Assembly (NCBI GenBank): GCA_937907055.1
Contig: CALCTW010000003.1
Coordinates: 1 to 13,872, forward strand
DNA length: 13,872 nt
Origin: an uncultured Clostridia bacterium
Lineage (GTDB): Bacteria > Bacillota > Clostridia > Christensenellales > Aristaeellaceae
Reading direction: 5' to 3'
Under the pieces are notes generated by a model that was not told the DNA's origin, did not search any database, and saw only the letters and a list, made by a program, of their open reading frames with translations. Of the stretch, positions 1,607 through 13,872 are shown piece by piece. Numbering within the stretch: position 1 is the first letter of the stretch; every line of letters begins with the position of its first letter. A program made the translations under genes and the position numbers.

Positions 1607-1819
1607 CACGGACTTTGGTGAATCTACACCATACGCGCCGGTCAACGCTGTTTTTGCCGGCCTGCCCGGTAAATATACGAAAACGAAAACAAAAACTCAG
1701 TTTAATAAACAAATGATGCTCTTTTTTGCTCTGTGATCCCGGCGCCAAATGCAGTATCTTATCAATGTACCGATGAGGTACACAAAAAGAAGAACAACGG
1801 CACAAGATGCCGGGAAAGT

Positions 1820-1945
1820 AATGACAGGCACAAGGTGCCGGAAAGAAGAGAGATTATGAACAAGCAGATGATGAATATGGAAGAACTGGAACAGGTCAAC
1901 GGCGGTAATATTTTTACTGATGTATGGAATTGGGTCTGCGAAAAG
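1820..1945 (+). repeat. Copy 1 of a ~126-nt tandemly duplicated cassette (5' UTR hairpin, RBS, GG leader and the first ~13 core codons)
   Basis: aatgacaggcacaaggtgccggaaagaagagagattatgaacaagcagatgatgaatatggaagaactggaacaggtcaacggcggt... recurs 246 nt downstream at 2066. The stretch atgatgaatatggaagaactggaacaggtcaacggcgg is identical in both copies. Similarity decays after the GG codons. Confidence 0.9.
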
Positions 1946-2050
1946 ACCATCGAGACCGGGAAGCGCATCGTGAAGGACGGCCCGTTTGTCCGGCCCAATA
2001 TCCTGCCTCCTTTTGACCCCATTATCGCTGATAACGGCAAGGATCAATAA
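1856..2050 (+). CDS. Double-glycine leader peptide precursor 1 (64 aa; 17-aa leader MNKQMMNMEELEQVNGG plus 47-aa core)
   Basis: ATG at 1856 is preceded by the purine-rich ggaaagaagagaga. The leader fits the class II bacteriocin/ComC-type GG leader pattern (acidic E-L-E, hydrophobic at -4, GG at -2/-1). Predicted cleavage lies after codon 17 (1904-1906). Core: NIFTDVWNWVCEKTIETGKRIVKDGPFVRPNILPPFDPIIADNGKDQ. A paralogue lies immediately downstream. The ORF-track start at 1733 would add 41 aa that are not conserved with the paralogue upstream of the shared UTR. Confidence 0.7.
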   Translation: MNKQMMNMEELEQVNGGNIFTDVWNWVCEKTIETGKRIVKDGPFVRPNILPPFDPIIADNGKDQ

Positions 2051-2065
2051 AAACGCGACGAATTG

Positions 2066-2191
2066 AATGACAGGCACAGCGTGCCGGAAAGAAGTAAGAT
2101 TATGAACAAGATGATGATGAATATGGAAGAACTGGAACAGGTCAACGGCGGCAATTTCCTCACGGACGCATGGGACTGGCTCTGCAAGAAG
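2066..2191 (+). repeat. Copy 2 of the duplicated UTR/leader cassette
   Basis: Aligns without gaps to 1820-1945 at a 246-nt offset. UTR differences fall mainly in the hairpin loop (aag versus agc) and in one RBS-proximal position. The leader differs by one codon (CAG to ATG) and one synonymous change (ggt to ggc). Confidence 0.9.
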
Positions 2192-2332
2192 TATCAGAAC
2201 AGAAGCAAGGCCCGCACGCCGGAGGAAAGGGAACAGGAGATCCTGGACAGGATCCGTCCCAAGATGCTGCCCACGAATGAACCGAACGGGATCGATAGAT
2301 TCGACTTCGTGAGAAAACGTGAAACCATTTAA
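2102..2332 (+). CDS. Double-glycine leader peptide precursor 2 (76 aa; leader MNKMMMNMEELEQVNGG plus 59-aa core)
   Basis: ATG at 2102 sits in the same context as copy 1 (ggaaagaagtaagatt ATG). Core: NFLTDAWDWLCKKYQNRSKARTPEEREQEILDRIRPKMLPTNEPNGIDRFDFVRKRETI. It shares N(I/F)(F/L)TD(V/A)W(N/D)W(V/L)C(E/K)K and RP(N/K)(I/M)LP with peptide 1. The ORF-track start at 2063 is a TTG extension. Confidence 0.7.
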   Translation: MNKMMMNMEELEQVNGGNFLTDAWDWLCKKYQNRSKARTPEEREQEILDRIRPKMLPTNEPNGIDRFDFVRKRETI

Positions 2333-2362
2333 CGATCAGGAATCAACACATATCGAATCAAG

Positions 2363-2396
2363 AAACCCATCCTCTGCAAGGGGGATGGGTTTTTGA
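2363..2396 (+). terminator. Rho-independent terminator of the GG-peptide transcription unit
   Basis: aaacccatcc (2363-2372) / ggatgggttt (2384-2393) stem followed by a T-run (gggtttttg), 30 nt after the stop of peptide 2. Confidence 0.8.
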
Positions 2397-2491
2397 TTGG
2401 ATATCACGGGCGGTTATATTGACTGTCCGGTGAGACAATGACAAAAAGCGATATGATCGGCGGATCGGGCAGGACAGCATACTGTATAATC

Positions 2492-2550: not shown

Positions 2551-3927
2551 TTATTCCGCCAGCTTTTCGGCTACATAGGCCAGCTGCTTTTCCACGCTCT
2601 CAAAGCCGGTGCCGCCGAAGGAGATGCGTTTCTTCACGCACTCCACAAGATCGACCGCCTCATAAACATCCGCGTCAAAGAGATCGGAATGCGCCTTGTA
2701 TTTTTCGAGAGGCAGGTTCTCCAGCACCAGATGCTCACGCATGCATTCTGCCACGATCTGTCCGCTGATCTTATAGGCGCTGCGGAAGGGCAGACCCTTG
2801 CGCACCAGATAATCCGCCAGGTCGGTGGCGTTGATGAAGCCTTCGCCGGCGGCCTTCTTCATGTTTTCGGGACGGGTCGTCATGGTGCTCACCATGCCGG
2901 TGAAGATATCCAGACAGGCCTTCACGGTATCGACCGCGTCAAAGATGGCTTCTTTGTCTTCCTGCATATCCTTGTTGTAGGCCAGCGGCAGACCCTTGAG
3001 GGTGGTCAGCAGGCCCATCAGATCGCCGTAGACACGGCCGGTCTTGCCGCGTACCAGCTCCGCCATATCGGGGTTGCGCTTCTGGGGCATGATGCTGCTG
3101 CCGGTGGTGAAGGCGTCGGACAGGGCGACAAAGCGGAATTCCCAGCTGCTCCAGAGGATCATTTCCTCGGCAAAGCGGGACAGATGCATCATCATCACGG
3201 CGATGTCGCTCATCATTTCGAGCGCGAAATCACGGTCGCTCACGCCGTCGATGCTGTTCATGCACACACCGTCAAAGCCCAGCTTCTCCGCTTCAAAGAA
3301 GCGGTCGGTATCGTAGGTGGTGCCGCTCAGCGCGCAGCTGCCGATGGGGCAGATGTTCATGCGCCTGCGGCAGTCCTTCAGACGGTCGATATCGCGCAGC
3401 AGCATCATGGCGTAGGCCAGCAGATGATGCGCGAACAGGATGGGCTGCGCGCGCTGCAGATGGGTATAGCCGGGGCAGACATTTTCCTTGTTCTGCTCCG
3501 CCTGATCGCGCACGGCTTCGATCAGCTTCTTTGTCTTTTCGATAATGGTATCCACCTCATCCAGCAGATACATGCGGATATCCAGCGCCACCTGATCGTT
3601 GCGGCTGCGCGCGGTGTGCAGCTTCTTGCCCACATCGCCCAGACGCTCCGTCAGCACCTGTTCCACAAACATGTGGATGTCTTCAGCTGCCGGATCGATC
3701 CCGAGCGCGCCGCTCCGGATGTCATCCAGAATGGCGGCCAGACCGTCGCAGAGCGTATCGGCCTCGGACTGCAGGATGATGCCCTGTTTGGCCAGCATCT
3801 GCGCGTGCGCCATGGAACCGGTGATATCCTGCGCGTACATACGCTGATCGAAACGGATGGAGGCGTTAAAATCATCTGCCGCCTTGTTGGTGTTCGCGTC
3901 TGTTACGCCTTCCCACATTTTAGCCAT
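2551..3927 (-). CDS. argH: Argininosuccinate lyase
   Basis: 458-aa ORF. N-terminus MWEGVTDANTNKAADDFNASIRFDQRMYAQDITGSMAHAQMLAKQGII is typical ArgH. The fumarate-lyase superfamily signature GSSIMPQKRNPD is present. AAGGAG lies 7 nt upstream of ATG 3927. Confidence 0.97.
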   Translation of the reverse strand: MAKMWEGVTDANTNKAADDFNASIRFDQRMYAQDITGSMAHAQMLAKQGIILQSEADTLCDGLAAILDDIRSGALGIDPAAEDIHMFVEQVLTERLGDVGKKLHTARSRNDQVALDIRMYLLDEVDTIIEKTKKLIEAVRDQAEQNKENVCPGYTHLQRAQPILFAHHLLAYAMMLLRDIDRLKDCRRRMNICPIGSCALSGTTYDTDRFFEAEKLGFDGVCMNSIDGVSDRDFALEMMSDIAVMMMHLSRFAEEMILWSSWEFRFVALSDAFTTGSSIMPQKRNPDMAELVRGKTGRVYGDLMGLLTTLKGLPLAYNKDMQEDKEAIFDAVDTVKACLDIFTGMVSTMTTRPENMKKAAGEGFINATDLADYLVRKGLPFRSAYKISGQIVAECMREHLVLENLPLEKYKAHSDLFDADVYEAVDLVECVKKRISFGGTGFESVEKQLAYVAEKLAE

Positions 3928-4075: not shown

Positions 4076-5293
4076 TTACTTCTTGCCGTCCACCATGGCC
4101 TGGACCTTGATGGGCAGACCGTAGAGGGTGATGAAGCCGGCGCTGTCCTTCTGATCGTAGTCAGAAGCGCCGAAGGTGGCGATATCCTCGCTGTAGAGGC
4201 TGTTGGGGCTCCACACACCGGCCTTGATGATGTTGCCCTTGTACAGCTTCAGGCGCACCTTGCCGTTGACCTTCTCCTGCGTCTTGTCCACGAAGGCGGA
4301 CAGGGCTTCGCGCAGGGGGGTGAACCACTGGCCGTTGTAAACCAGCTCGGCGAAGGTGATGGACAGACGCTGCTTTTCATGCATGGTCATCTTGTCCAGC
4401 GTGATGCTCTCCAGCGCCTCATGCGCCTTGTACAGGATGGTGCCGCCGGGAGTCTCGTACACGCCGCGGCACTTCATGCCCACCAGACGGTTCTCCACGA
4501 TATCGATGATACCGATACCGTTCTTGCCGCCCAGCTCGTTCAGCTTGAGGATGATGTTCTTGGCGGACATCTTTTCGCCGTCGATGGCCACGGGCGTACC
4601 CTGTTCAAAATCAAGGGTGACATAGGTGGGCGCGTCGGGAGCGGCGATGGGGCTGACGCCCATCTCGAGGAAGCCGGGCTTCTCATACAGCGGCTCGTTG
4701 CCGGTGTCTTCCAGATCCATGCCCTCGTGGGACAGATGCCAGAGGTTCTTATCCTTGGAGTAGTTGGTCTCGCGGTTGATCTTCAGGGGGATGTTGTGCG
4801 CTTCCGCGTAGTCGATCTCCTCATCACGGGACACGATATCCCATTCACGCCAGGGAGCGATGATGGGCATGTTGGGAGCGAAATGCTTGATGGCCAGCTC
4901 GAAGCGAACCTGATCGTTGCCCTTGCCGGTGCAGCCGTGGCAGATGGCATCGGCGTTTTCCTTCAGCGCGATCTCCACCAGACCCTTAGCGATGCAGGGA
5001 CGGGCATGGCTGGTGCCCAGCAGATAATCTTCGTATACAGCACCCGCCTTCATGGTGGGGATGATGTATTCATCAACATATTCTTCGGTCAGATCCAGCA
5101 CATAAAGCTTGCTGGCGCCGGTCTTCAGAGCCTTTTCCTCCAGGCCCTCCAGTTCATCGGCCTGACCCACGTTGCCGCTCACGGCAACGACTTCGCAGTT
5201 ATTATAGTTTTCCTTCAGCCAGGGGATGATGATGCTGGTATCCAGGCCGCCGGAATAGGCGAGAACAACTTTCTTGATGTCTTTCTTGTCCAT
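4076..5293 (-). CDS. argG: Argininosuccinate synthase
   Basis: [20 protein letters not shown] carries the ATP pyrophosphatase P-loop SGGLDTS. The sequence is ArgG-like along its length ([31 protein letters not shown]). The start is trimmed from 5359 to ATG 5293 because GGAGGA sits 7 nt upstream and the 22-aa extension is not ArgG-like. Confidence 0.97.
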
Positions 5294-5357
5294 TTCTGTA
5301 TCCTCCGTTTTTGCCCGATGGGCACTCGTTACGCACTCCGGTGCATAAACCTTGTTC

Positions 5358-5385
5358 ATTATATCATCGGAGGCGGAGATGTCAA
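5358..5385 (-). promoter_or_regulatory. Sigma-A type promoter for argG
   Basis: Minus strand: TTGACA (5385-5380), 16-nt spacer, TATAAT (5363-5358), about 65 nt upstream of the argG start. Confidence 0.6.
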
Positions 5386-5394
5386 GACTAAAAT

Positions 5395-5408
5395 TGAAAA
5401 ATTATGCA
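5395..5408. promoter_or_regulatory. ARG-box-like palindrome 1 (candidate ArgR/AhrC operator)
   Basis: tgaaaaattatgca matches the ARG-box core TGAATAATTATTCA at 12 of 14 positions. It lies 10 nt upstream of the argG -35. Confidence 0.35.
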
Positions 5409-5425
5409 CAAACTTCAGTATAAAT

Positions 5426-5439
5426 TGTATAACTATACA
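5426..5439. promoter_or_regulatory. ARG-box-like palindrome 2 (TGTATA-AC-TATACA)
   Basis: Perfect 6+6 inverted repeat with 11 of 14 matches to TGAATAATTATTCA, 31 nt from box 1 in the argG/HAD divergent intergenic region. Confidence 0.3.
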
Positions 5440-5476
5440 TAAAACGGCGGTGATATTCAGTGTTATCCCTTTTTTA

Positions 5477-5544: not shown

Positions 5545-6198
5545 ATGGGCGTTACGATCTTATTCGATCTGGACGGTACGCTGATCGATACCGAAAAGTA
5601 TTTCAGGATCTACTGGCCGAAGGCCGCGGAGGCGCTCGGTTATCATATGACGGATGAGCAGGCGCTGCAATTGCGCTCGCTCGGCCGTCCTTTTGCCTTT
5701 GATGTGTTCAAAAGTATGTTCGGCGAGGATGTGGATTACTGGGCAATGCGGCAGAAGCGCCGTGAACTGATGGAGCCTGTGCTGGAAAGGGACGGGGTCC
5801 GATTGAAGAAGGGCGTGAAGGAGCTGCTGGAGTATATGTCCGCGCACGGGCATACCGCCGCGATCGCCACCGCCTCCGATGTGGAAAGAACACGGAAATA
5901 TCTTTCCTCGATCGGGCTGGAGGGCTATTTCAGCCGTATCATCTCAGCCACGATGGTGCCCTTCGGCAAACCGGCGCCGGATATTTACCGGTATGCCTGT
6001 GAGCAGCTGGGGATCGCGCCGGGGGACTGCTACGCGGTGGAGGATTCCCCGAACGGCATCACCAGCGCGTATAAGGCCGGGCTGAAGGTGATCATGATCC
6101 CCGATCAGACACCGCCGGATGAGACCGTGCTGCCGATGCTGACCCATGTATACGAAGACGCGGGCCGGATCATCGAACTGCTCCGCGCGCGTGAATGA
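5545..6198 (+). CDS. HAD-IA family hydrolase (beta-phosphoglucomutase/phosphatase-like)
   Basis: AAGGAGG at 5534-5540 precedes ATG 5545. HAD motifs are present: I FDLDGTLIDTE, II AIATAS, III GKPAPDIY, IV VEDSPNGITSA. The ORF-track start at 5482 lies upstream of the promoter -10. Confidence 0.85.
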   Translation: MGVTILFDLDGTLIDTEKYFRIYWPKAAEALGYHMTDEQALQLRSLGRPFAFDVFKSMFGEDVDYWAMRQKRRELMEPVLERDGVRLKKGVKELLEYMSAHGHTAAIATASDVERTRKYLSSIGLEGYFSRIISATMVPFGKPAPDIYRYACEQLGIAPGDCYAVEDSPNGITSAYKAGLKVIMIPDQTPPDETVLPMLTHVYEDAGRIIELLRARE

Positions 6199-6209
6199 CG
6201 GAGGCGGGG

Positions 6210-6995
6210 ATGGCGGCTTTTTGCGATCGCTGCGGAAAGGAGATCTTTCCGTTCGATAATGTCTGTCCCTTCTGCGGGCAGCTCCATCAAAAAACGGAAG
6301 CGGACGAAATGACGGTCCCGGGGCTTCGCGCGGCCTGCGCGCGATACGGGATCGTGCCGGAAAGCTACGGCTTTTCCATCGGTCAGCAGACAGCGTTCCC
6401 GGGCACCGGGGCGATCTACCGGGATGATGACGGGGGATATGTGCTGGAGCGTGTCCGGGAGGACGGCACACGGGAGATCCTGAGCGAGGGCACGGAGGAA
6501 AAACTGGTGGCGGAAGCCTTTGTCCGCGTGCTGAAGGAAAGCTGGCTGAAAAGGCATCCGGGCTACCGGCTGCCGGGCGCGGGCGGCGCGCCGGCCGCCG
6601 CGAAGGCGCCGTCCTTTTTCGGCACGCGGCACGGCGCGATGGATATGTCCGCGAAGACCCCGGAAAAGGATCCCCTCCGGCTGCGCACGCGCGTGCTCGG
6701 CGCGCTCTTCCTGATCTTTGTCCTCCTGTCGGTGTATTATTTTATCAAGGCGGATAAGAATGACGGCTATTACACCATGAACGGCGTGACCTATGTCTAT
6801 TATCATGATACCTGGTATGAGGGTGAGGGCAGCGAATGGAAGCCGACCGGAACGCCGGAGGGCTTCAGCTGGAAGGGTGACTGGGAATATGACACCATCC
6901 GGGAAGGCGGTTTTGCCGACAGCCCGTATTATCAGCCTGTCACCTGGTCCTCGCTCTGGCGGGGCGGGGAACAGCCCCGGCCGGAAGACCCGTAA
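6210..6995 (+). CDS. Hypothetical single-pass membrane protein with an N-terminal CxxC-x10-CxxC zinc ribbon and a Trp/Tyr-rich C-terminal ectodomain
   Basis: GGAGG at 6201-6205 lies 4 nt before ATG 6210; the alternative ATG 6195 overlaps the upstream stop as ATGA. Features: CDRCGKEIFPFDNVCPFCG; a hydrophobic span VLGALFLIFVLLSVYYFI; then YYTMNGVTYVYYHDTWYEGEGSEWKP...WKGDWEYD. No family was recognised. Confidence 0.6.
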   Translation: MAAFCDRCGKEIFPFDNVCPFCGQLHQKTEADEMTVPGLRAACARYGIVPESYGFSIGQQTAFPGTGAIYRDDDGGYVLERVREDGTREILSEGTEEKLVAEAFVRVLKESWLKRHPGYRLPGAGGAPAAAKAPSFFGTRHGAMDMSAKTPEKDPLRLRTRVLGALFLIFVLLSVYYFIKADKNDGYYTMNGVTYVYYHDTWYEGEGSEWKPTGTPEGFSWKGDWEYDTIREGGFADSPYYQPVTWSSLWRGGEQPRPEDP

Positions 6996-7649: not shown

Positions 7650-8309
7650 ATGACGGAATCCAAGGCCTGGAACTGGAAAGAAGCAAAGAATATTGAACAA
7701 TGGATGATCCCGTCGCAGGAATGCGTTTATCTCGCGCAGGAATGGAAAAAGAAGCAGGTGCAGTCGGTGCTGGATCTGGGCTGCGGTCTTGGACGGCACG
7801 CCCTGTATTTCGCGCGGGCAGGCTATCGGGTGACCGCCATGGATCTTTCTCCGGAGGCGCTGGCTTCAACGGAAGCGCTGCTGTGTGAAAACGGCTTTGA
7901 CACTATTCCCTGCATTAAGGGCGATATGATGTCCCTGCCTTTCCTGAACGGTTCCTTTGACGCGGTCTTCTCCTTTCATGTGGTCACGCACCAGAACACG
8001 CAGGGCGTGTATCACGCGGTGCAGGAGATCACGCGCGTTTTAAAGCCGCGCGGGCAGCTGTTCCTTACCCTGTGCTCCAAGCGTCACCGCGCCTATACGG
8101 ATCCGAAAAATGTGCGGATCGATGAAAACAGCGTGATGAAGACAGAAGGGGCCGAAAAGGATGTGCCGCATTTTTACGCGGATAAGCCCCTGATCCGGGA
8201 TCTTTTCCGGGATTACGAGATCCTTTCCCTGCGGGAGATCGCGGAATGCGAGCTTGACAGCGACCGTGAGAAGTGCCATTATTTCCTGATCGCGCAGAAG
8301 AAGGACTGA
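7650..8309 (+). CDS. Class I SAM-dependent methyltransferase
   Basis: GGGAGG at 7639-7644 lies 5 nt before ATG 7650; the ORF-track start at 7632 is a GTG. Motif I VLDLGCGLGRHALYFARAGYRVTAMDLS; post-I/II DMMSLPFLNGSFDAVFS; motif III LKPRGQLFL. Confidence 0.85.
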   Translation: MTESKAWNWKEAKNIEQWMIPSQECVYLAQEWKKKQVQSVLDLGCGLGRHALYFARAGYRVTAMDLSPEALASTEALLCENGFDTIPCIKGDMMSLPFLNGSFDAVFSFHVVTHQNTQGVYHAVQEITRVLKPRGQLFLTLCSKRHRAYTDPKNVRIDENSVMKTEGAEKDVPHFYADKPLIRDLFRDYEILSLREIAECELDSDREKCHYFLIAQKKD

Positions 8310-9127: not shown

Positions 9128-10152
9128 CGCGCGCGAGAGAACACGGGATCGTGACCGGATCCCTGCCGACCGGAAAACTGAATAAGATCTCCGATGTGCC
9201 GGGCGTCACAGTGGGGCATTGCACCATCGCGGATGACACCCATAATACCGGTGTGACGGTGGTCATGCCGTGCGCGGATAATATGTTTATCCGTAAGCTG
9301 CCCTGTGCCGCGTTCGTGCTGAACGGCTTTGGCAAGACCGCGGGCCTTGTGCAGATCGACGAGTTGGGCACGCTGGAGACCCCCATCGCGCTCACCAACA
9401 CCCTGAATATCGGACGGGTGCATGACGCCATGGTGGGCTATATGCTGGATCGCTGCGAAAAGGATCATGTGAGGCTGACCTCGGTCAATCCCGTGGTGTG
9501 CGAATGCAATGACGCCTCGCTGAATGATATCGCTTCCCGCGCGGTGGGGGAAAAGCATGTGCTTCAGGCTATCGCTTCCGCCTGCGCGGATTTTGAAGAG
9601 GGCGCGGTCGGCTGCGGACGCGGCACGACCTGTCATGGGCTGAAGGGCGGCGTGGGCAGCGCTTCCCGGGTGCTGAATTTTGACGGAAATGATTATACTC
9701 TCGGCGTGCTGGCGCAGACCAATCACGGCCGTCTGCGGGATCTTGTGATCGCGGGCGATCCTGTGGGCGAACGCGTCCACGGCGCGCTCACGGAGGGCAT
9801 GCCGGATAAGGGCAGCTGTATCATCATCCTGGCGACCGATCTGCCGCTTTCCGACCGTCAGCTGCGCAGGGTCGTCAAGCGCTGCTCTGTCGGTCTGGCC
9901 AGGCTGGGCAGCTTCATCGGTCACGGCAGCGGAGAGGTGTTCATCGCCTTCTCCACAGTCAACCGGACCCCCGCGCCGGAGGAGACGCGCGCGGTCACGC
10001 CCCTGCTTGCCTTTAACGAAAACAAACTGGATCAGTGCTTCCGCGCGGCGGCTGAATGCACAGAGGAAGCGGTTCTGAACAGCATGCTGTGCGCTGAAAG
10101 CGTGACAGCCGCGTCCGGAGCTGTCCGCCATACGCTTGATGAATTCATTTGA
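9124..10152 (+). CDS. P1/DmpA family (MEROPS S58) aminopeptidase-like protein
   Basis: ATG 9124 overlaps the TSUP stop (ATGA). MTRAREHGIVTGSLPTGKLNKISDVPGVTVGHCTI, TGVTVV, CGRGTTCHGLKGGVGSAS and ATDLPLS are typical of DmpA-like Ntn-type peptidases. The ORF-track extension back to 8860 overlaps the TSUP gene out of frame and is not credible. Confidence 0.8.
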   Translation: MTRAREHGIVTGSLPTGKLNKISDVPGVTVGHCTIADDTHNTGVTVVMPCADNMFIRKLPCAAFVLNGFGKTAGLVQIDELGTLETPIALTNTLNIGRVHDAMVGYMLDRCEKDHVRLTSVNPVVCECNDASLNDIASRAVGEKHVLQAIASACADFEEGAVGCGRGTTCHGLKGGVGSASRVLNFDGNDYTLGVLAQTNHGRLRDLVIAGDPVGERVHGALTEGMPDKGSCIIILATDLPLSDRQLRRVVKRCSVGLARLGSFIGHGSGEVFIAFSTVNRTPAPEETRAVTPLLAFNENKLDQCFRAAAECTEEAVLNSMLCAESVTAASGAVRHTLDEFI

Positions 10153-10723
10153 GGCCGAGTTTGATAAAATTGACAGCAAGGCCGCGTTCCGCCGGATGCT
10201 CCGCGAGCGGGAAAAAATGTCCCCGCAGGCGCGTGAAGCAGCCGACCGGGTGATCACAGCCCGTGTGCTGAAATCCGCGGAATACAGGGCCGCGAAGACG
10301 ATCTTCATCTATGTTTCGACTGCTTCGGAGCCGGATACCCTGCCGGTCATTCGGGATGCGCTGAAAAACGGGAAACAGGTGTGCGTGCCAAGGTGCCTTA
10401 AGGGTCATCAGATGGAGGCGGTCCGGATCACGGGCCTGTCCGATCTGCAGCCCGGCGCGTACGGGATCCCGGAGCCGTCGGAGGGCTGCATCACTGTGCC
10501 GCCGGAGCGGATCAATCTGGCCGTCATTCCCTGTGTGGCCGCCTCTGAAAAGGGGGAGCGTCTGGGGCACGGCGCGGGCTATTATGACCGCTATCTGCCG
10601 GGCGTGAAGGCCTGTAAAATGTGCCTTTGCTTTTCATGGCTTCTTTTTTCAAAGATCCCAACCGATCCGCATGATATCCCGATGGACATCGTCATCACGG
10701 ATGACGGAAAGGAGGCGCGCTGA
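10139..10723 (+). CDS. 5-formyltetrahydrofolate cyclo-ligase (MTHFS family)
   Basis: K..FRRMLRERE...AADRVITARVL, TIFIYVS...EPDT, GAYGIPEP, ERLGHGAGYYDRYL and DIPMDIVITD are family hallmarks. The start is uncertain: ATG 10139 follows the TTG at 10136, has no clear RBS, and overlaps the preceding gene by 14 nt. Confidence 0.85.
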   Translation: MNSFEAEFDKIDSKAAFRRMLREREKMSPQAREAADRVITARVLKSAEYRAAKTIFIYVSTASEPDTLPVIRDALKNGKQVCVPRCLKGHQMEAVRITGLSDLQPGAYGIPEPSEGCITVPPERINLAVIPCVAASEKGERLGHGAGYYDRYLPGVKACKMCLCFSWLLFSKIPTDPHDIPMDIVITDDGKEAR

Positions 10724-12508: not shown

Positions 12509-12540
12509 CGCGTCCCAGGAAACCGGGGCGCGTTTTGCTG
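12509..12540 (+). terminator. Rho-independent terminator ending the long + strand operon
   Basis: cgcgtccc / ggggcgcg stem (one G-U pair) with loop aggaaacc, followed by ttttgctgttttg. It begins 10 nt after the stop at 12499. Confidence 0.7.
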
Positions 12541-12589
12541 TTTTGTTGCTTTTCTGTGACGGCAAATTATTAAATCATGGGATATGACA

Positions 12590-12617
12590 TTGACAAGCAG
12601 GAAAACTTCTTTATAAT
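12590..12617 (+). promoter_or_regulatory. Sigma-A type promoter for the secreted-protein gene
   Basis: TTGACA (12590-12595), 16-nt spacer, TATAAT (12612-12617), about 85 nt upstream of ATG 12703. Confidence 0.6.
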
Positions 12618-12702
12618 ATAGATGGAATAGTGTCTTTAATGGTAAAAGAATACCTGTGATATTTAAAAGTTTCGACAGAAAATACGAAAAGAGGCCAACA
12701 AC

Positions 12703-13872
12703 ATGAAAAAACGGATGCTCAGTCTGCTCATCGCCTTCATGCTCGTCTGCTCGTCAATGCCGGCAGTTTTTTCCGAGTCTGAAGGGCTGGACGAACCTGC
12801 GGAGGTCGTCAGCACAGAACAGGTGACGGAGACCAGCGAAGAACAGCCTGCCGTAACGGAGGCTGCCGAAGAAACGCCCGTCACGGCTGAAGAGGAGCCC
12901 TCTGTTGTCGAGAACGTGACGGATGCTCCGGTCGTGGAAGAGACCGTTCAGGAGGAAGTCGTTTCCGAAGCGGAAGAGATCGTTGAAGAAGTTTCCGAAG
13001 ACGACGCTTCTGAAGAAGACGCTTCCGAAGAAGAAGTCATCGCGGCCGCCGAGAATGATCCGGCCGTCTACACCGTCAACACCTGGGGCATCAAGCACCT
13101 CACGGCGGACGCGCCCGCGTCTGTGACGGAAGGCAATGCCGTTACGATCGCGCTGACCGCTGAAGAAGGCTACGCGCTGCCCGGCAGCGTCACCCTCACG
13201 ATCGGCGGAAACGGCGTATCCGTGAAGAGCCTCACCCGCGCGGAAGCGGAAGAACTGCGCGAAAAGAACGAACTGCCCGAGGACGCGATCCTCTACTACA
13301 CCGATTCCGGTAAGCTCGTGATCCCCGCCGCGCGCGTGACCGGCGATATCGTGCTGAACGCCGAGGGCGTGCTGATCGAAGAAGAGATCGAAGACTATAA
13401 CAAACTTATCGATAAAAAGGCAAAAGAAGTCGATGCGGCAAAGAACCGCGAGGCTACTCAGCTGGAAAAATACCGTACAAGGGTCCGTGCCATGGAGGAA
13501 AACGGAGGCTATAATATCCTTGCCATTGTTTTGAAGGCGGGGAATTTTTCCCAGCTTCTGACAGCAATGGACGACATGGGCGAGATCATGCAGAGCGATA
13601 AGCAGCTTCAGCGTGATTATGCCGCTGCCCGCGAAGAGACGGAAGAGATTAAGGCTCAGTACGAGGAAGAAAAGGCCGGATACGAGGCTCAGCAGAAGAT
13701 CCTTGAACAGGAACAGGATGAGATCAGCAAGCAGATAGAAAGCGCGTCAGAGCTTCTTGAGAGCCTTGACGAAGAAATAGAAAAAGCCATGGAGCTTTAT
13801 AAGAAATACGATGTATACGTTATTTCCGACGAGATCTGGTCTGATATCCTTCTGAACGGAAACCGTCATATT
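12703..13872 (+). CDS. Partial (3'-open) secreted protein: signal peptide, acidic E/V/T/S-rich linker, beta-rich domain, CwlO/PcsB-like coiled coil, then an aminotransferase-like tail. Possibly mosaic or chimeric.
   Basis: Not in the ORF track because no stop is reached. I translated 390 codons by hand from ATG 12703 (GAGG at 12691-12694) with no stop to the window end. Segments in order: MKKRMLSLLIAFMLVCSSMPAVFS/ESEG signal; EEQPAVTEAAEETPVTAEEEPSVVENV...SEDDASEEDASEEE; AVYTVNTWGIKHLTADAPASVTEGNAVTIALTAEEGYALPGSVTLTIGG; YRTRVRAMEENGGYNILAIVLKAGNFSQLLTAMDDMGEIMQSDKQL, which resembles CwlO RVRSLQESGGSQGYIDVLLGSTSFGDFISR; and the end DEEIEKAMELYKKYDVYVISDEIWSDILLNGNRHI. Confidence 0.65.
   Translation, partial: MKKRMLSLLIAFMLVCSSMPAVFSESEGLDEPAEVVSTEQVTETSEEQPAVTEAAEETPVTAEEEPSVVENVTDAPVVEETVQEEVVSEAEEIVEEVSEDDASEEDASEEEVIAAAENDPAVYTVNTWGIKHLTADAPASVTEGNAVTIALTAEEGYALPGSVTLTIGGNGVSVKSLTRAEAEELREKNELPEDAILYYTDSGKLVIPAARVTGDIVLNAEGVLIEEEIEDYNKLIDKKAKEVDAAKNREATQLEKYRTRVRAMEENGGYNILAIVLKAGNFSQLLTAMDDMGEIMQSDKQLQRDYAAAREETEEIKAQYEEEKAGYEAQQKILEQEQDEISKQIESASELLESLDEEIEKAMELYKKYDVYVISDEIWSDILLNGNRHI

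Follow-up and report, generated by a model that had tools for sequence, protein, structure and literature searches.

Tandem genes for 2 paralogous peptides of an undescribed double-glycine-leader family with hydrophilic, apparently modular mature parts in an uncultured Clostridia bacterium

The window examined here is a stretch of 13,872 nucleotides, positions 1 to 13,872 of contig CALCTW010000003.1 (assembly GCA_937907055.1), from an uncultured Clostridia bacterium of the Aristaeellaceae. Two adjacent small genes on its forward strand encode peptide precursors, here called Pep1 and Pep2, which are 2 paralogs of a small, undescribed family of ribosomally made peptides with a double-glycine (GG) leader. 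Leaders of this shape are the export and cleavage signal of class II bacteriocins, some lanthipeptides and ComC-type pheromones, and are processed by peptidase-containing ABC transporters (PCATs). Judged from the sequences, Pep1 and Pep2 are very likely true secreted peptides, processed at the GG, from a new family. The explanation that best covers all of the observations is that they are modular, combining a variable tail with a helix at the membrane interface, and probably serve in competition, and we place its probability at roughly 0.5.

The Pep1 precursor gene (1856-2050) encodes 64 amino acids and a stop codon. The leader of 17 residues, MNKQMMNMEELEQVNGG (1856-1906), is followed by NIFTDVWNWVCEKTIETGKRIVKDGPFVRPNILPPFDPIIADNGKDQ, and the predicted mature peptide of 47 residues (1907-2047) has an average mass of 5398.1 Da and an isoelectric point (pI) of 5.0. 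The Pep2 precursor gene (2102-2332) encodes 76 amino acids and a stop codon, with a leader of 17 residues, MNKMMMNMEELEQVNGG (2102-2152), followed by NFLTDAWDWLCKKYQNRSKARTPEEREQEILDRIRPKMLPTNEPNGIDRFDFVRKRETI, and a predicted mature peptide of 59 residues (2153-2329) with an average mass of 7266.2 Da and a pI of 9.0. The 2 leaders have the form MNK(Q/M)MMNMEELEQVNGG in common, and the motif NxxTDxWxWxCxK stands directly after the GG in both. Residues 18-30 of Pep1, NIFTDVWNWVCEK, make up a conserved segment with the pattern of an amphipathic helix, which corresponds to NFLTDAWDWLCKK in Pep2; thereafter follow a Pro-rich tail with the C-terminal end PIIADNGKDQ in Pep1 and a charged tail, probably helical or disordered, in Pep2.

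A DNA alignment confirmed that the 2 units share 38 consecutive identical nucleotides, ATGATGAATATGGAAGAACTGGAACAGGTCAACGGCGG, as stated in a preliminary description of this DNA that had pointed out the neighboring genes and their 17-residue leaders. The 29-nucleotide leader core was present in 2 copies in the window and in none of 200 shuffles. The repeat begins about 38 nucleotides 5' of the ATG and thus takes in the hairpin of the 5' untranslated region (UTR) and the ribosome-binding site. Past the motif the identity drops, and Pep2 is longer by extra residues, in agreement with the strong divergence after the GG and the longer second core (47 versus 59 residues) noted earlier; a short homologous patch, (V/I)RP(N/K)(I/M)LP, is kept beyond the divergence point. 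The cores had also been called charged and Pro-rich, of which the second part holds merely to a moderate degree, with 15% Pro in the tail of Pep1 and 9% in that of Pep2.

A profile of Pep1 and Pep2 retrieved only 15 clusters among 5.8 billion proteins, all without a name or Pfam domain, and an exhaustive hidden Markov model (HMM) search of 1.84 billion cluster representatives gave 23 proteins at E <= 0.001, 4 of which were large and unrelated. Of the large profile matches, 2 were set aside as chance or compositional: P0027, a kinesin-like repeat assembly, and P0031, a repeat protein in which an FTDxFDY motif occurs. No annotation for the family was found in Pfam, NCBIfam or the source records, and a full-text literature search for the peptide motifs returned no paper. 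A scan of GTDB genomes for further loci gave a single match, on a contig of 2.3 kb, and none were found in IMG/VR, among the PLSDB plasmids or in GenBank phages. The JGI metagenomes gave no match by protein pattern, and the DNA pattern yielded one unrelated GG peptide.

Orthologs of both Pep1 and Pep2 recurred in independent samples: P0003, from another sample, was 98% identical to Pep1, and P0001, P0002 and P0004 were Pep2 orthologs from other samples, while P0005 carried a Pep2-type tail (EEREQEILDxIRPKML) behind a variant N-terminal motif. Close members conserved the leader and GG-NIFTDAWDW(V/I/L)C(E/D)K and were hypervariable thereafter, with tails that were rich in Pro, aromatic and acidic residues, rich in Lys and Glu, or Cys-rich (58 amino acids). 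The Cys-rich tail of P0012 was considered as a shared effector domain; no relatives of it were found outside the family, and the idea was dropped. In the cores of those ortholog pairs from other loci that had enough differences, the ratio of nonsynonymous to synonymous polymorphism (pN/pS) was about 0.06-0.6.

Within the motif, W24 was present in at least 90% of the close members, whereas C28 and K30 varied. In place of the Cys, P0004 has W, P0005 V and P0015 Y, and in P0014 the Cys is shifted by 2 positions. That each peptide has a single Cys within a shared motif, as first described, is thus correct for Pep1 and Pep2 and incorrect for the family as a whole; a cross-link or dimer through Cys is hence improbable as a defining trait of the family, and the proposal of Cys-linked dimers is weakened. 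The distant members lacked both Trp: in P0033, P0035, P0037 and P0040-P0042 these were lost, yet GG|N-Phi-Phi-x-D and the amphipathic pattern were kept. Many of the distant members ended like Pep1 in P-[IV]-I-A-[DEG] and a short charged tail, a feature common to Pep1, P0035, P0041 and P0007.

Family members were located at 9 further distinct sites (L001/L002; L003-L007, which represent one site with a variable downstream flank; L008; L009; L010; L015/16; L017-19; L020/21; and the unrelated L011), at all of which they formed tandem arrays of 1 to 4 genes. GG leaders typically span about 15-30 residues and end in GG (or GA/GS); in their consensus, positions -4, -7 and -12 are hydrophobic and the neighborhood of -8 holds an acidic residue. 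The Pep1 and Pep2 leaders agree with this consensus in G16-G17, V14 (-4), L11 (-7), M6 (-12) and E10/E9 (-8/-9), and in the family alignment the GG was invariant and the other consensus positions were invariant or nearly so. Near-identical leaders were also found on unrelated cores, namely YKYEKKKVD...WLWNGIKSIF (L005, L006, L009), KDFTDVVVD... (P0034) and DFYTVMFDWVLFK... (L001), so that the leader is a separable, transferable module in the related loci.

Furthermore, the distant member P0041 in L017 was directly preceded by a hydrophobic, GxxxG-rich GG peptide, FVLAAFIVAGIGGAIAGAIAYYEMKR, with a related LNELEQVNGG leader, the tandem pair occupying 538-693 and 758-958. The hydrophobic peptide passed TIGR03949 (class IIb lactobin A/cerein 7B; 35.1 versus 21.5 bits) and TIGR01847. 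The P0035 protein (L015, 3604-3963) contained 2 leader-plus-core units in one open reading frame (ORF), and its leader passed TIGR01847 (20.3 versus 15.7); P0036 contained a repeated LEQVSGGNVFTDPP. Because one leader serves unrelated cores and one member adjoins a peptide that passes the class IIb model, the GG is very probably a true cleavage site and export signal, and the original identification of a double-glycine leader holds.

The mature peptides themselves are unusual. The grand average of hydropathy (GRAVY) was -0.41 for Pep1 and -1.27 for Pep2, the highest 15-residue Kyte-Doolittle means were 0.73 and -0.55, and the net charges were -1 and +2. The cores of typical GG-leader class II peptides are about 40 amino acids long and hydrophobic (bioRxiv 10.1101/2024.07.15.603639). 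Pore-forming members of class II are marked by a cationic, hydrophobic or amphiphilic core that contains a membrane-inserting helix or GxxxG motifs. Each window peptide has a single Cys. With hydrophilic cores, no GxxxG and no membrane-inserting helix, Pep1 and Pep2 are unlike classical pore-forming class II bacteriocins, as had been concluded before. The accompanying statement that they have no hydrophobic helix was found to be valid for a membrane-spanning helix and to need qualification otherwise, since the 13 residues after the GG have the pattern of an amphipathic helix, apolar at i, i+1, i+4, i+5, i+8 and i+9, in a register that is kept in the distant Trp-less members.

The best match of the family profile in the PDB was the membrane-anchor helix of the hepatitis C virus (HCV) protein NS5A (1R7C, 31 residues), with GSWLRDIWDWICEVLSDFK aligned to GNIFTDAWDWVCEK...; pairwise, 7 of 14 residues were identical, and the apolar face had the same register. 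A peptide from this stretch of NS5A, C5A, is an amphipathic helix that ruptures the envelopes of human immunodeficiency virus (HIV) and herpes simplex virus (HSV), and a non-amphipathic variant of it is inactive (PMC3089603). A second resemblance came from 2 of the profile matches, P0032 (~730-1215) and P0039 (~675-995), which are phage tape measure proteins that pass PF20155 and contain 5-7 tandem repeats of ~58 amino acids. Their repeat, W.GW..IG.FF[SG]D.W.WI, resembles the peptide motif, with profile E-values of 4.6e-8 and 4.1e-4 over the whole proteins that sum several weak repeat matches. Aromatic repeats are known in the tape measure proteins of siphophages, where their role is unsettled (PMC5099701). 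We regard both likenesses as resemblances and not as homology, and both would fit the view of a Trp-rich interfacial helix. Despite the non-pore-forming look of the peptides, membrane activity is possible by analogy, the motif being very like a known membrane-active in-plane helix.

The genes stand alone. Neither Pfam scans of ORFs in the window nor the families precomputed for the syntenic L001 revealed a C39/ABC transporter, histidine kinase, response regulator, radical-SAM enzyme or Lan enzyme, consistent with the earlier account of a window without PCAT, modification enzyme or two-component system. Likewise, no kinase or regulator and no tailoring enzyme (radical-SAM, Lan, YcaO) was found at the 9 further sites within the flanks at hand, which reach 10 kb at most and are often much shorter, several contigs being just 2-8 kb long. 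The orphan status first noted for the window thus extends to every related site examined and characterizes the entire family; it is no accident of the window. The contexts differ from site to site. Housekeeping genes flank the peptide genes in the window and L001; in L003, L005 and L006 the peptide genes follow a TetR/flavodoxin pair and a gene for a 286-amino-acid Sec-signal protein; in L009 they are carried by a conjugative element (MobA/MobL, serine recombinase, TrbL, PrgI); in L010 they stand beside a replication-like gene; and in L015 they are divergent from a peptidase M13 gene. Most members were found on contigs of less than 4 kb, as expected for repeated or mobile DNA. Immunity-like candidates were confined to L009 (a polytopic membrane protein of 209 amino acids, 4839-5468, reverse strand) and L010 (a lipoprotein of 112 amino acids with a weak EexN-like match, 2753-3091, forward strand), and neither has a counterpart in the window.

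The arrays gain and lose units through recombination between the repeated leader/UTR segments. A comparison of window positions 1780-2400 with positions 9925-10295 of the near-identical L001 showed that L001 contains exactly one unit of 246 nucleotides fewer. The missing unit corresponds to the Pep1 gene and its spacer (1856-2101 in the window), and the single gene of L001 is a chimera, in which a Pep1-type upstream region and MNKQ leader are joined to a Pep2 core. The indel and the chimeric gene are therefore attributed to unequal recombination between the repeated segments. One family gene in a four-gene array (L005, 9551-9737; L006, 3167-3220) is a frameshifted copy, MNKQMMNMEELEQVVWR*, the remainder of its core lying in a different frame. 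It was also noted that L001 has a third member (7981-8163), MNKTMMNMEELEQVSGG|DFYTVMFDWVLFKRPEQ..., on the far side of the gene for the putative IdeS-like protease described below. A contig break inside such a third peptide gene in the window was ruled out, as nucleotides 1-45 of the window did not match the third gene of L001.

The region of ~190 nucleotides upstream of Pep1 (1668-1855) aligned with the regions upstream of the arrays in L001 (9815-10000), L009 (4135-4304) and L010 (1885-2047), and also with the region upstream of the gene for the 286-amino-acid secreted protein in L003 (3170-3351) and L005 (8170-8353). The mean column identity of the 6 sequences was 74%, and the conserved content comprised ACGAAAAC direct repeats, a -10-like hexamer and 2 invariant hairpins. 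In the window, this "type I" block starts at 1668-1745 (forward strand, like all elements of the module) with A-rich direct repeats, ATACGAAAACGAAAAC ... ATAAACAAA, and the -10-like hexamer TGTGAT (1732-1737), in the place of which L010 has TATAAT. The block is presumed to be an activator-dependent promoter, an assignment that we only infer because a simple sigma-70 scan found no canonical -35/-10 pair in it. The secreted protein of 286 amino acids has a Sec signal, is rich in Ala, Gly, Val and Thr and belongs to no known family, and no homology to the Pep peptides was found. The presence of one upstream block ahead of both gene types suggests that the peptide arrays and this gene belong to one regulon. 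A second, different type of upstream region (TGCCGTGGATT...GCGTAT...GTCAGG...CCTGACAGAAAC) preceded the first gene in L001 (7981; block 7800-7980), L009 (3926; block 3750-3925) and L015 (block 3420-3603).

The conserved 5' UTR (1746-1855) contains the putative hairpins GTACC-GATGA-GGTAC (1767-1781), GGCA-CAAGA-TGCC (1799-1811) and GGCAC-AAG-GTGCC (1827-1839), the last of which is followed by the purine-rich ribosome-binding site GGAAAGAAGAGAG (1840-1852). A second hairpin and ribosome-binding-site unit (2073-2097), GGCAC-AGC-GTGCC (2073-2085) and then GGAAAGAAGTAAG, is located in the 51-nucleotide spacer before Pep2, and the two-gene unit ends in an intrinsic terminator (~2363-2396; AAACCCATCC ... 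GGATGGGTTT then TT) that is conserved in L001. The unit GGCAC-N3-GTGCC-GGAAAGA(A/G)G preceded 16 of the 18 distinct family genes. The stems of the UTR hairpins were invariant across loci, with no compensatory changes; a check of RNA structure gave 2 small hairpins in which every pair was invariant and none covaried, and an Rfam scan of 1500-2600 (E up to 10) gave chance-level matches only. The imperfect palindrome GGCAC-N3-GTGCC could be a hairpin that stabilizes the mRNA or directs its processing, or an operator. A sigma-54 promoter within it was ruled out by the GG-to-GC spacing, which is 10 nucleotides and not 12.

The fraction of guanine and cytosine (GC) was 0.44-0.49 across 1501-2400, compared with about 0.57-0.63 in the flanks, so that the AT-richer module with its own terminator was recovered as described. 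The spacer between the terminator and argH differed by indels between the window and L001. A GC-rich palindrome at 2498-2522 (CGCGCCGGA...TCCGGCGCG), located between the module and the convergent argH gene, had a terminator score on either strand and probably terminates argH. The remaining Pfam-assigned genes of the window are ordinary (argH, argG, HAD hydrolases, NUDIX, methyltransferase, TauE, peptidase S58, 5-FTHF cyclo-ligase, tyrosine phosphatase and a PcsB-like coiled-coil protein). The last of these, encoded at ~12520-13872 (forward strand) and running off the end of the window, is a secreted acid-rich protein with a PcsB-type coiled coil (PF24568, 26.9 bits versus a cut-off of 27) and is probably associated with cell-wall hydrolases. 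An ORF of 266 amino acids at 6195-6995 (forward strand) had weak zinc-ribbon matches at the N-terminus, a probable transmembrane segment and no Pfam family; its counterpart in L001 has 261 amino acids.

Divergent from Pep1, a gene on the reverse strand (116-1564) encodes a protein of 482 amino acids with a signal peptide. Only 6 homologous clusters were found among the 5.8 billion proteins, HMM searches of Pfam and the PDB were negative, and the AlphaFold model had a predicted local distance difference test score (pLDDT) of 44. Two colinear motifs, SSMCWAAATANML (135-148) and HAVTLTGY...FIANSDDN (386-423), aligned with the regions of the catalytic Cys and of the His/Asp in IdeS, the streptococcal protease that degrades immunoglobulin G; with a provisional IdeS sequence as the partner, the pairwise E-values for the 2 motifs were 0.26 and 0.006. 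The protein may be an orphan secreted cysteine protease of the IdeS/Mac type. Homologs with 70-76% identity (L012-L014) had no peptide genes as neighbors.

In the explanation that we prefer, a PCAT encoded at another place in the genome would export the precursors and cleave them after Gly17, which would free an acidic peptide of 5398 Da and a basic one of 7266 Da. The new N-terminus, an N-cap Asn and then Phi-Phi-x-D-Phi-W-x-W-Phi, would fold as an in-plane helix that docks on the membrane interface, and the variable tail would supply specificity or effect. The role would be competition among related gut anaerobes, in the manner of a non-pore-forming bacteriocin and not of a quorum signal. 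Competition is favored over signaling because the arrays hold several paralogs and pseudogenes, because GG peptides of the bacteriocin type occur together with the family, and because the motif resembles membrane-active helices. Taken separately, the membrane-docking and antagonistic function is put forward tentatively, as less likely than not.

Several results weigh against this explanation. The comparison with GG-leader models that had been recommended at the outset gave matches confined to the leader, and these fell below every curated cut-off: the scores for Pep1 and Pep2 were 18.2 and 16.3 bits with PF10439 (cut-off 27.1; E 0.002 and 0.01) and 13.2 and 11.3 bits with TIGR03949 (cut-off 21.5). 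No C39/PCAT gene was found in the window or in the flanks available at the 9 sites, and we therefore infer export entirely. Class II bacteriocin genes adjoin an immunity gene, usually one for a small membrane protein; beside the window pair there was no clear immunity gene, nor a conserved ORF between the terminator and argH. Across the family, GRAVY ranged from -0.06 to -1.32 and net charge from -5 to +3, many mature peptides were anionic, and no membrane-spanning stretch was found, with no 15-residue Kyte-Doolittle mean above 1.2. The hydrophobic moment of the motif was reached by 7.6% of shuffles. The AlphaFold model of Pep2 with the family alignment was of low confidence (mean pLDDT 54), with helices predicted at 8-14 in the leader, 20-37 in the motif (the best block, pLDDT about 70) and 40-51. 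The NS5A match was not significant database-wide (E 0.14), and with Wimley-White sums of -0.02 and -1.02 kcal/mol, compared with -1.48 kcal/mol for NS5A, the window motifs are less hydrophobic. Lastly, the core of Pep2 differed from that of its L001 ortholog by 1 synonymous and 3 nonsynonymous changes, too few to show purifying selection.

Nothing was found in favor of the signaling peptides suggested in the preliminary description, given the absence of receptor genes nearby, the several paralogs with a pseudogene and the long mature peptides; the new class of secreted effectors that it also proposed is possible. Secreted pheromones, exported through the GG, sensed by a distant receptor and possibly trimmed to a short N- or C-terminal fragment, would account for hydrophilic mature parts without bacteriocin features, for the lack of an adjoining immunity gene and for a mature part that varies between strains behind a constant leader, like pherotypes. 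The conserved C-terminal P-[IV]-I-A-[DEG], Pep1 included, could mark a processed end, and secreted peptidase genes stand divergent beside 2 arrays, IdeS-like in the window and L001 and M13 in L015. However, no histidine kinase, response regulator or RRNPP-type receptor was found near the 9 sites, the 2-4 different paralogs per array with one pseudogene are typical of bacteriocin cassettes, mature lengths of 34-71 amino acids are long for ComC/BlpC-type signals, and the IdeS-like homologs at 70-76% identity lack peptide neighbors, all of which makes pheromones unlikely. The divergent peptidases could instead mean that the peptides are substrates, pro-peptides or inhibitors of the neighboring IdeS-like protease, whose gene has family members on both sides in L001 and is divergent from Pep1 in the window, in the same way that the M13 peptidase gene is divergent from the L015 array. 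This is extremely improbable, as the arrays in L003, L005, L009, L010, L017 and L020 have no peptidase neighbor, the protease homologs in L012-L014 have no peptide neighbor, and the protease assignment is based on 2 short motif alignments.

It is also conceivable that the peptides are modified or that they never leave the cell. Precursors of peptides that the ribosome makes and that are modified after translation (RiPPs) usually combine a conserved leader with variable cores, and W-x-W-x-C-x-K, directly after the cleavage site, could be modified in trans, for instance by a radical-SAM enzyme that makes Trp/Lys or Cys links, as known from darobactin, streptide or sactipeptides; W-N-W or W-D-W followed by C and K recalls the cross-linked motifs of darobactin (WNWSKSF) and streptide. 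Yet no radical-SAM, LanB/C/M, YcaO or other tailoring gene was found near any member, Cys28 and Lys30 vary, both Trp are missing from distant members that still keep the amphipathic pattern, and conservation next to the leader with hypervariability in the rest is unlike a defined modification scaffold, so that we hold RiPP precursors to be very unlikely. A cytoplasmic helix-GG-helix protein, or the decaying remnant of a bacteriocin island, would agree with the lack of a transporter near any member, the frameshifted copy in L005/L006, the unit lost from L001, the AlphaFold helices on both sides of the GG and the comparison of Pep2 orthologs, which gave no clear purifying selection. Such a lack of export seems distinctly unlikely to us: the frames, starts and terminator, along with the ribosome-binding sites and upstream elements, are intact and have been conserved at divergent loci, pN/pS is well below 1 in other ortholog pairs, and the leader fits the export consensus and is common to a bacteriocin precursor that passes a curated model. 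Moreover, the export of unlinked GG peptides by one distant PCAT is common in other bacteria, as in the blp/com/mutacin systems of Streptococcus.

If the peptides are exported, the cargo range of PCATs would widen to acidic, soluble, modular peptides, and bacteria would supply a natural counterpart to a well-studied viral helix with membrane activity. The shuffling of cassettes through the leader, as with the 246-nucleotide unit that distinguishes near-identical strains, is a simple and directly observable route by which secreted peptides diversify. Bacteriocins and pheromones are sought by way of their double-glycine leaders, and mining pipelines usually require that a core be hydrophobic and that a C39 transporter be encoded nearby (bioRxiv 10.1101/2024.07.15.603639); as the family passes neither filter, such pipelines would miss it. 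For the present the family, which is very rare, has limited practical value; it is real and coherent, and lies outside current mining rules. A more far-reaching interpretation, which we consider improbable, is that of a new class of modular peptides in which a GG tag, a 13-residue membrane-interface "address" helix and a hydrophilic payload tail, freely exchanged and either Pro/aromatic-rich, charged and helical, or Cys-rich, are combined with an unlinked exporter and non-pore action. Such peptides could coat or perturb the membrane surface of competitors, act on membrane vesicles or hinder the injection of phage DNA, the last idea being prompted by the resemblance to the repeats of tape measure proteins.

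Among known systems, the class IIb bacteriocin precursors (TIGR03949; PF10439 Bacteriocin_IIc) are similar in the hydrophobic and acidic spacing of the GG leader and in their small tandem genes, and P0041 is encoded directly beside a TIGR03949-passing peptide with a matching leader. The Pep family departs from them in its hydrophilic cores, which are often anionic and lack both GxxxG and a membrane-spanning helix. The matches of Pep1 and Pep2 to the models cover only the leader and stay under the cut-offs, and neither transporter nor accessory or immunity genes are encoded nearby. Membership of the GG-leader class is supported by features of the sequence and not by curated HMM thresholds. The ComC/BlpC pheromones also have a GG leader, a hydrophilic, unmodified-looking mature part and variability between strains, but the mature parts of Pep1 and Pep2 are 47 and 59 residues long, compared with ~17-30, there is no adjacent kinase or regulator, and several paralogs occur per locus. 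In the class IIa (pediocin-like) bacteriocins, a conserved N-terminal box after the GG is followed by a variable C-terminal half that is thought to set specificity. The analogy is one of layout only: the Pep box is NIFTDAWDWVCEK instead of YGNGV with a disulfide, and where class IIa peptides have a hydrophobic or amphiphilic C-terminal half that inserts into membranes, the Pep tail is hydrophilic or Pro-rich.

With the HCV NS5A helix and C5A, the peptides have in common a nearly identical local sequence, DIWDWICE in NS5A and DAWDWVCE or DAWDWICD in the bacterial family, and a helix that would start 2-3 residues past a proteolytic N-terminus. There is no plausible common ancestry, the bacterial motif has 2 Trp and not 3, and the NS5A helix anchors a large protein in the membrane and is not part of a secreted peptide. 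In the tape measure proteins, IG-x-FF-[SG]-D-x-W-x-W-I recurs 5-7 times per protein, although as internal repeats of structural proteins of 1700-2100 amino acids with no GG leader. In at least one defining feature examined, the family differs from each of 3 groups, namely pore-forming class II bacteriocins, ComC-type pheromones and clusters for RiPPs, and what is new is the combination of a GG leader with an atypical, modular and soluble mature part, encoded away from any transporter.

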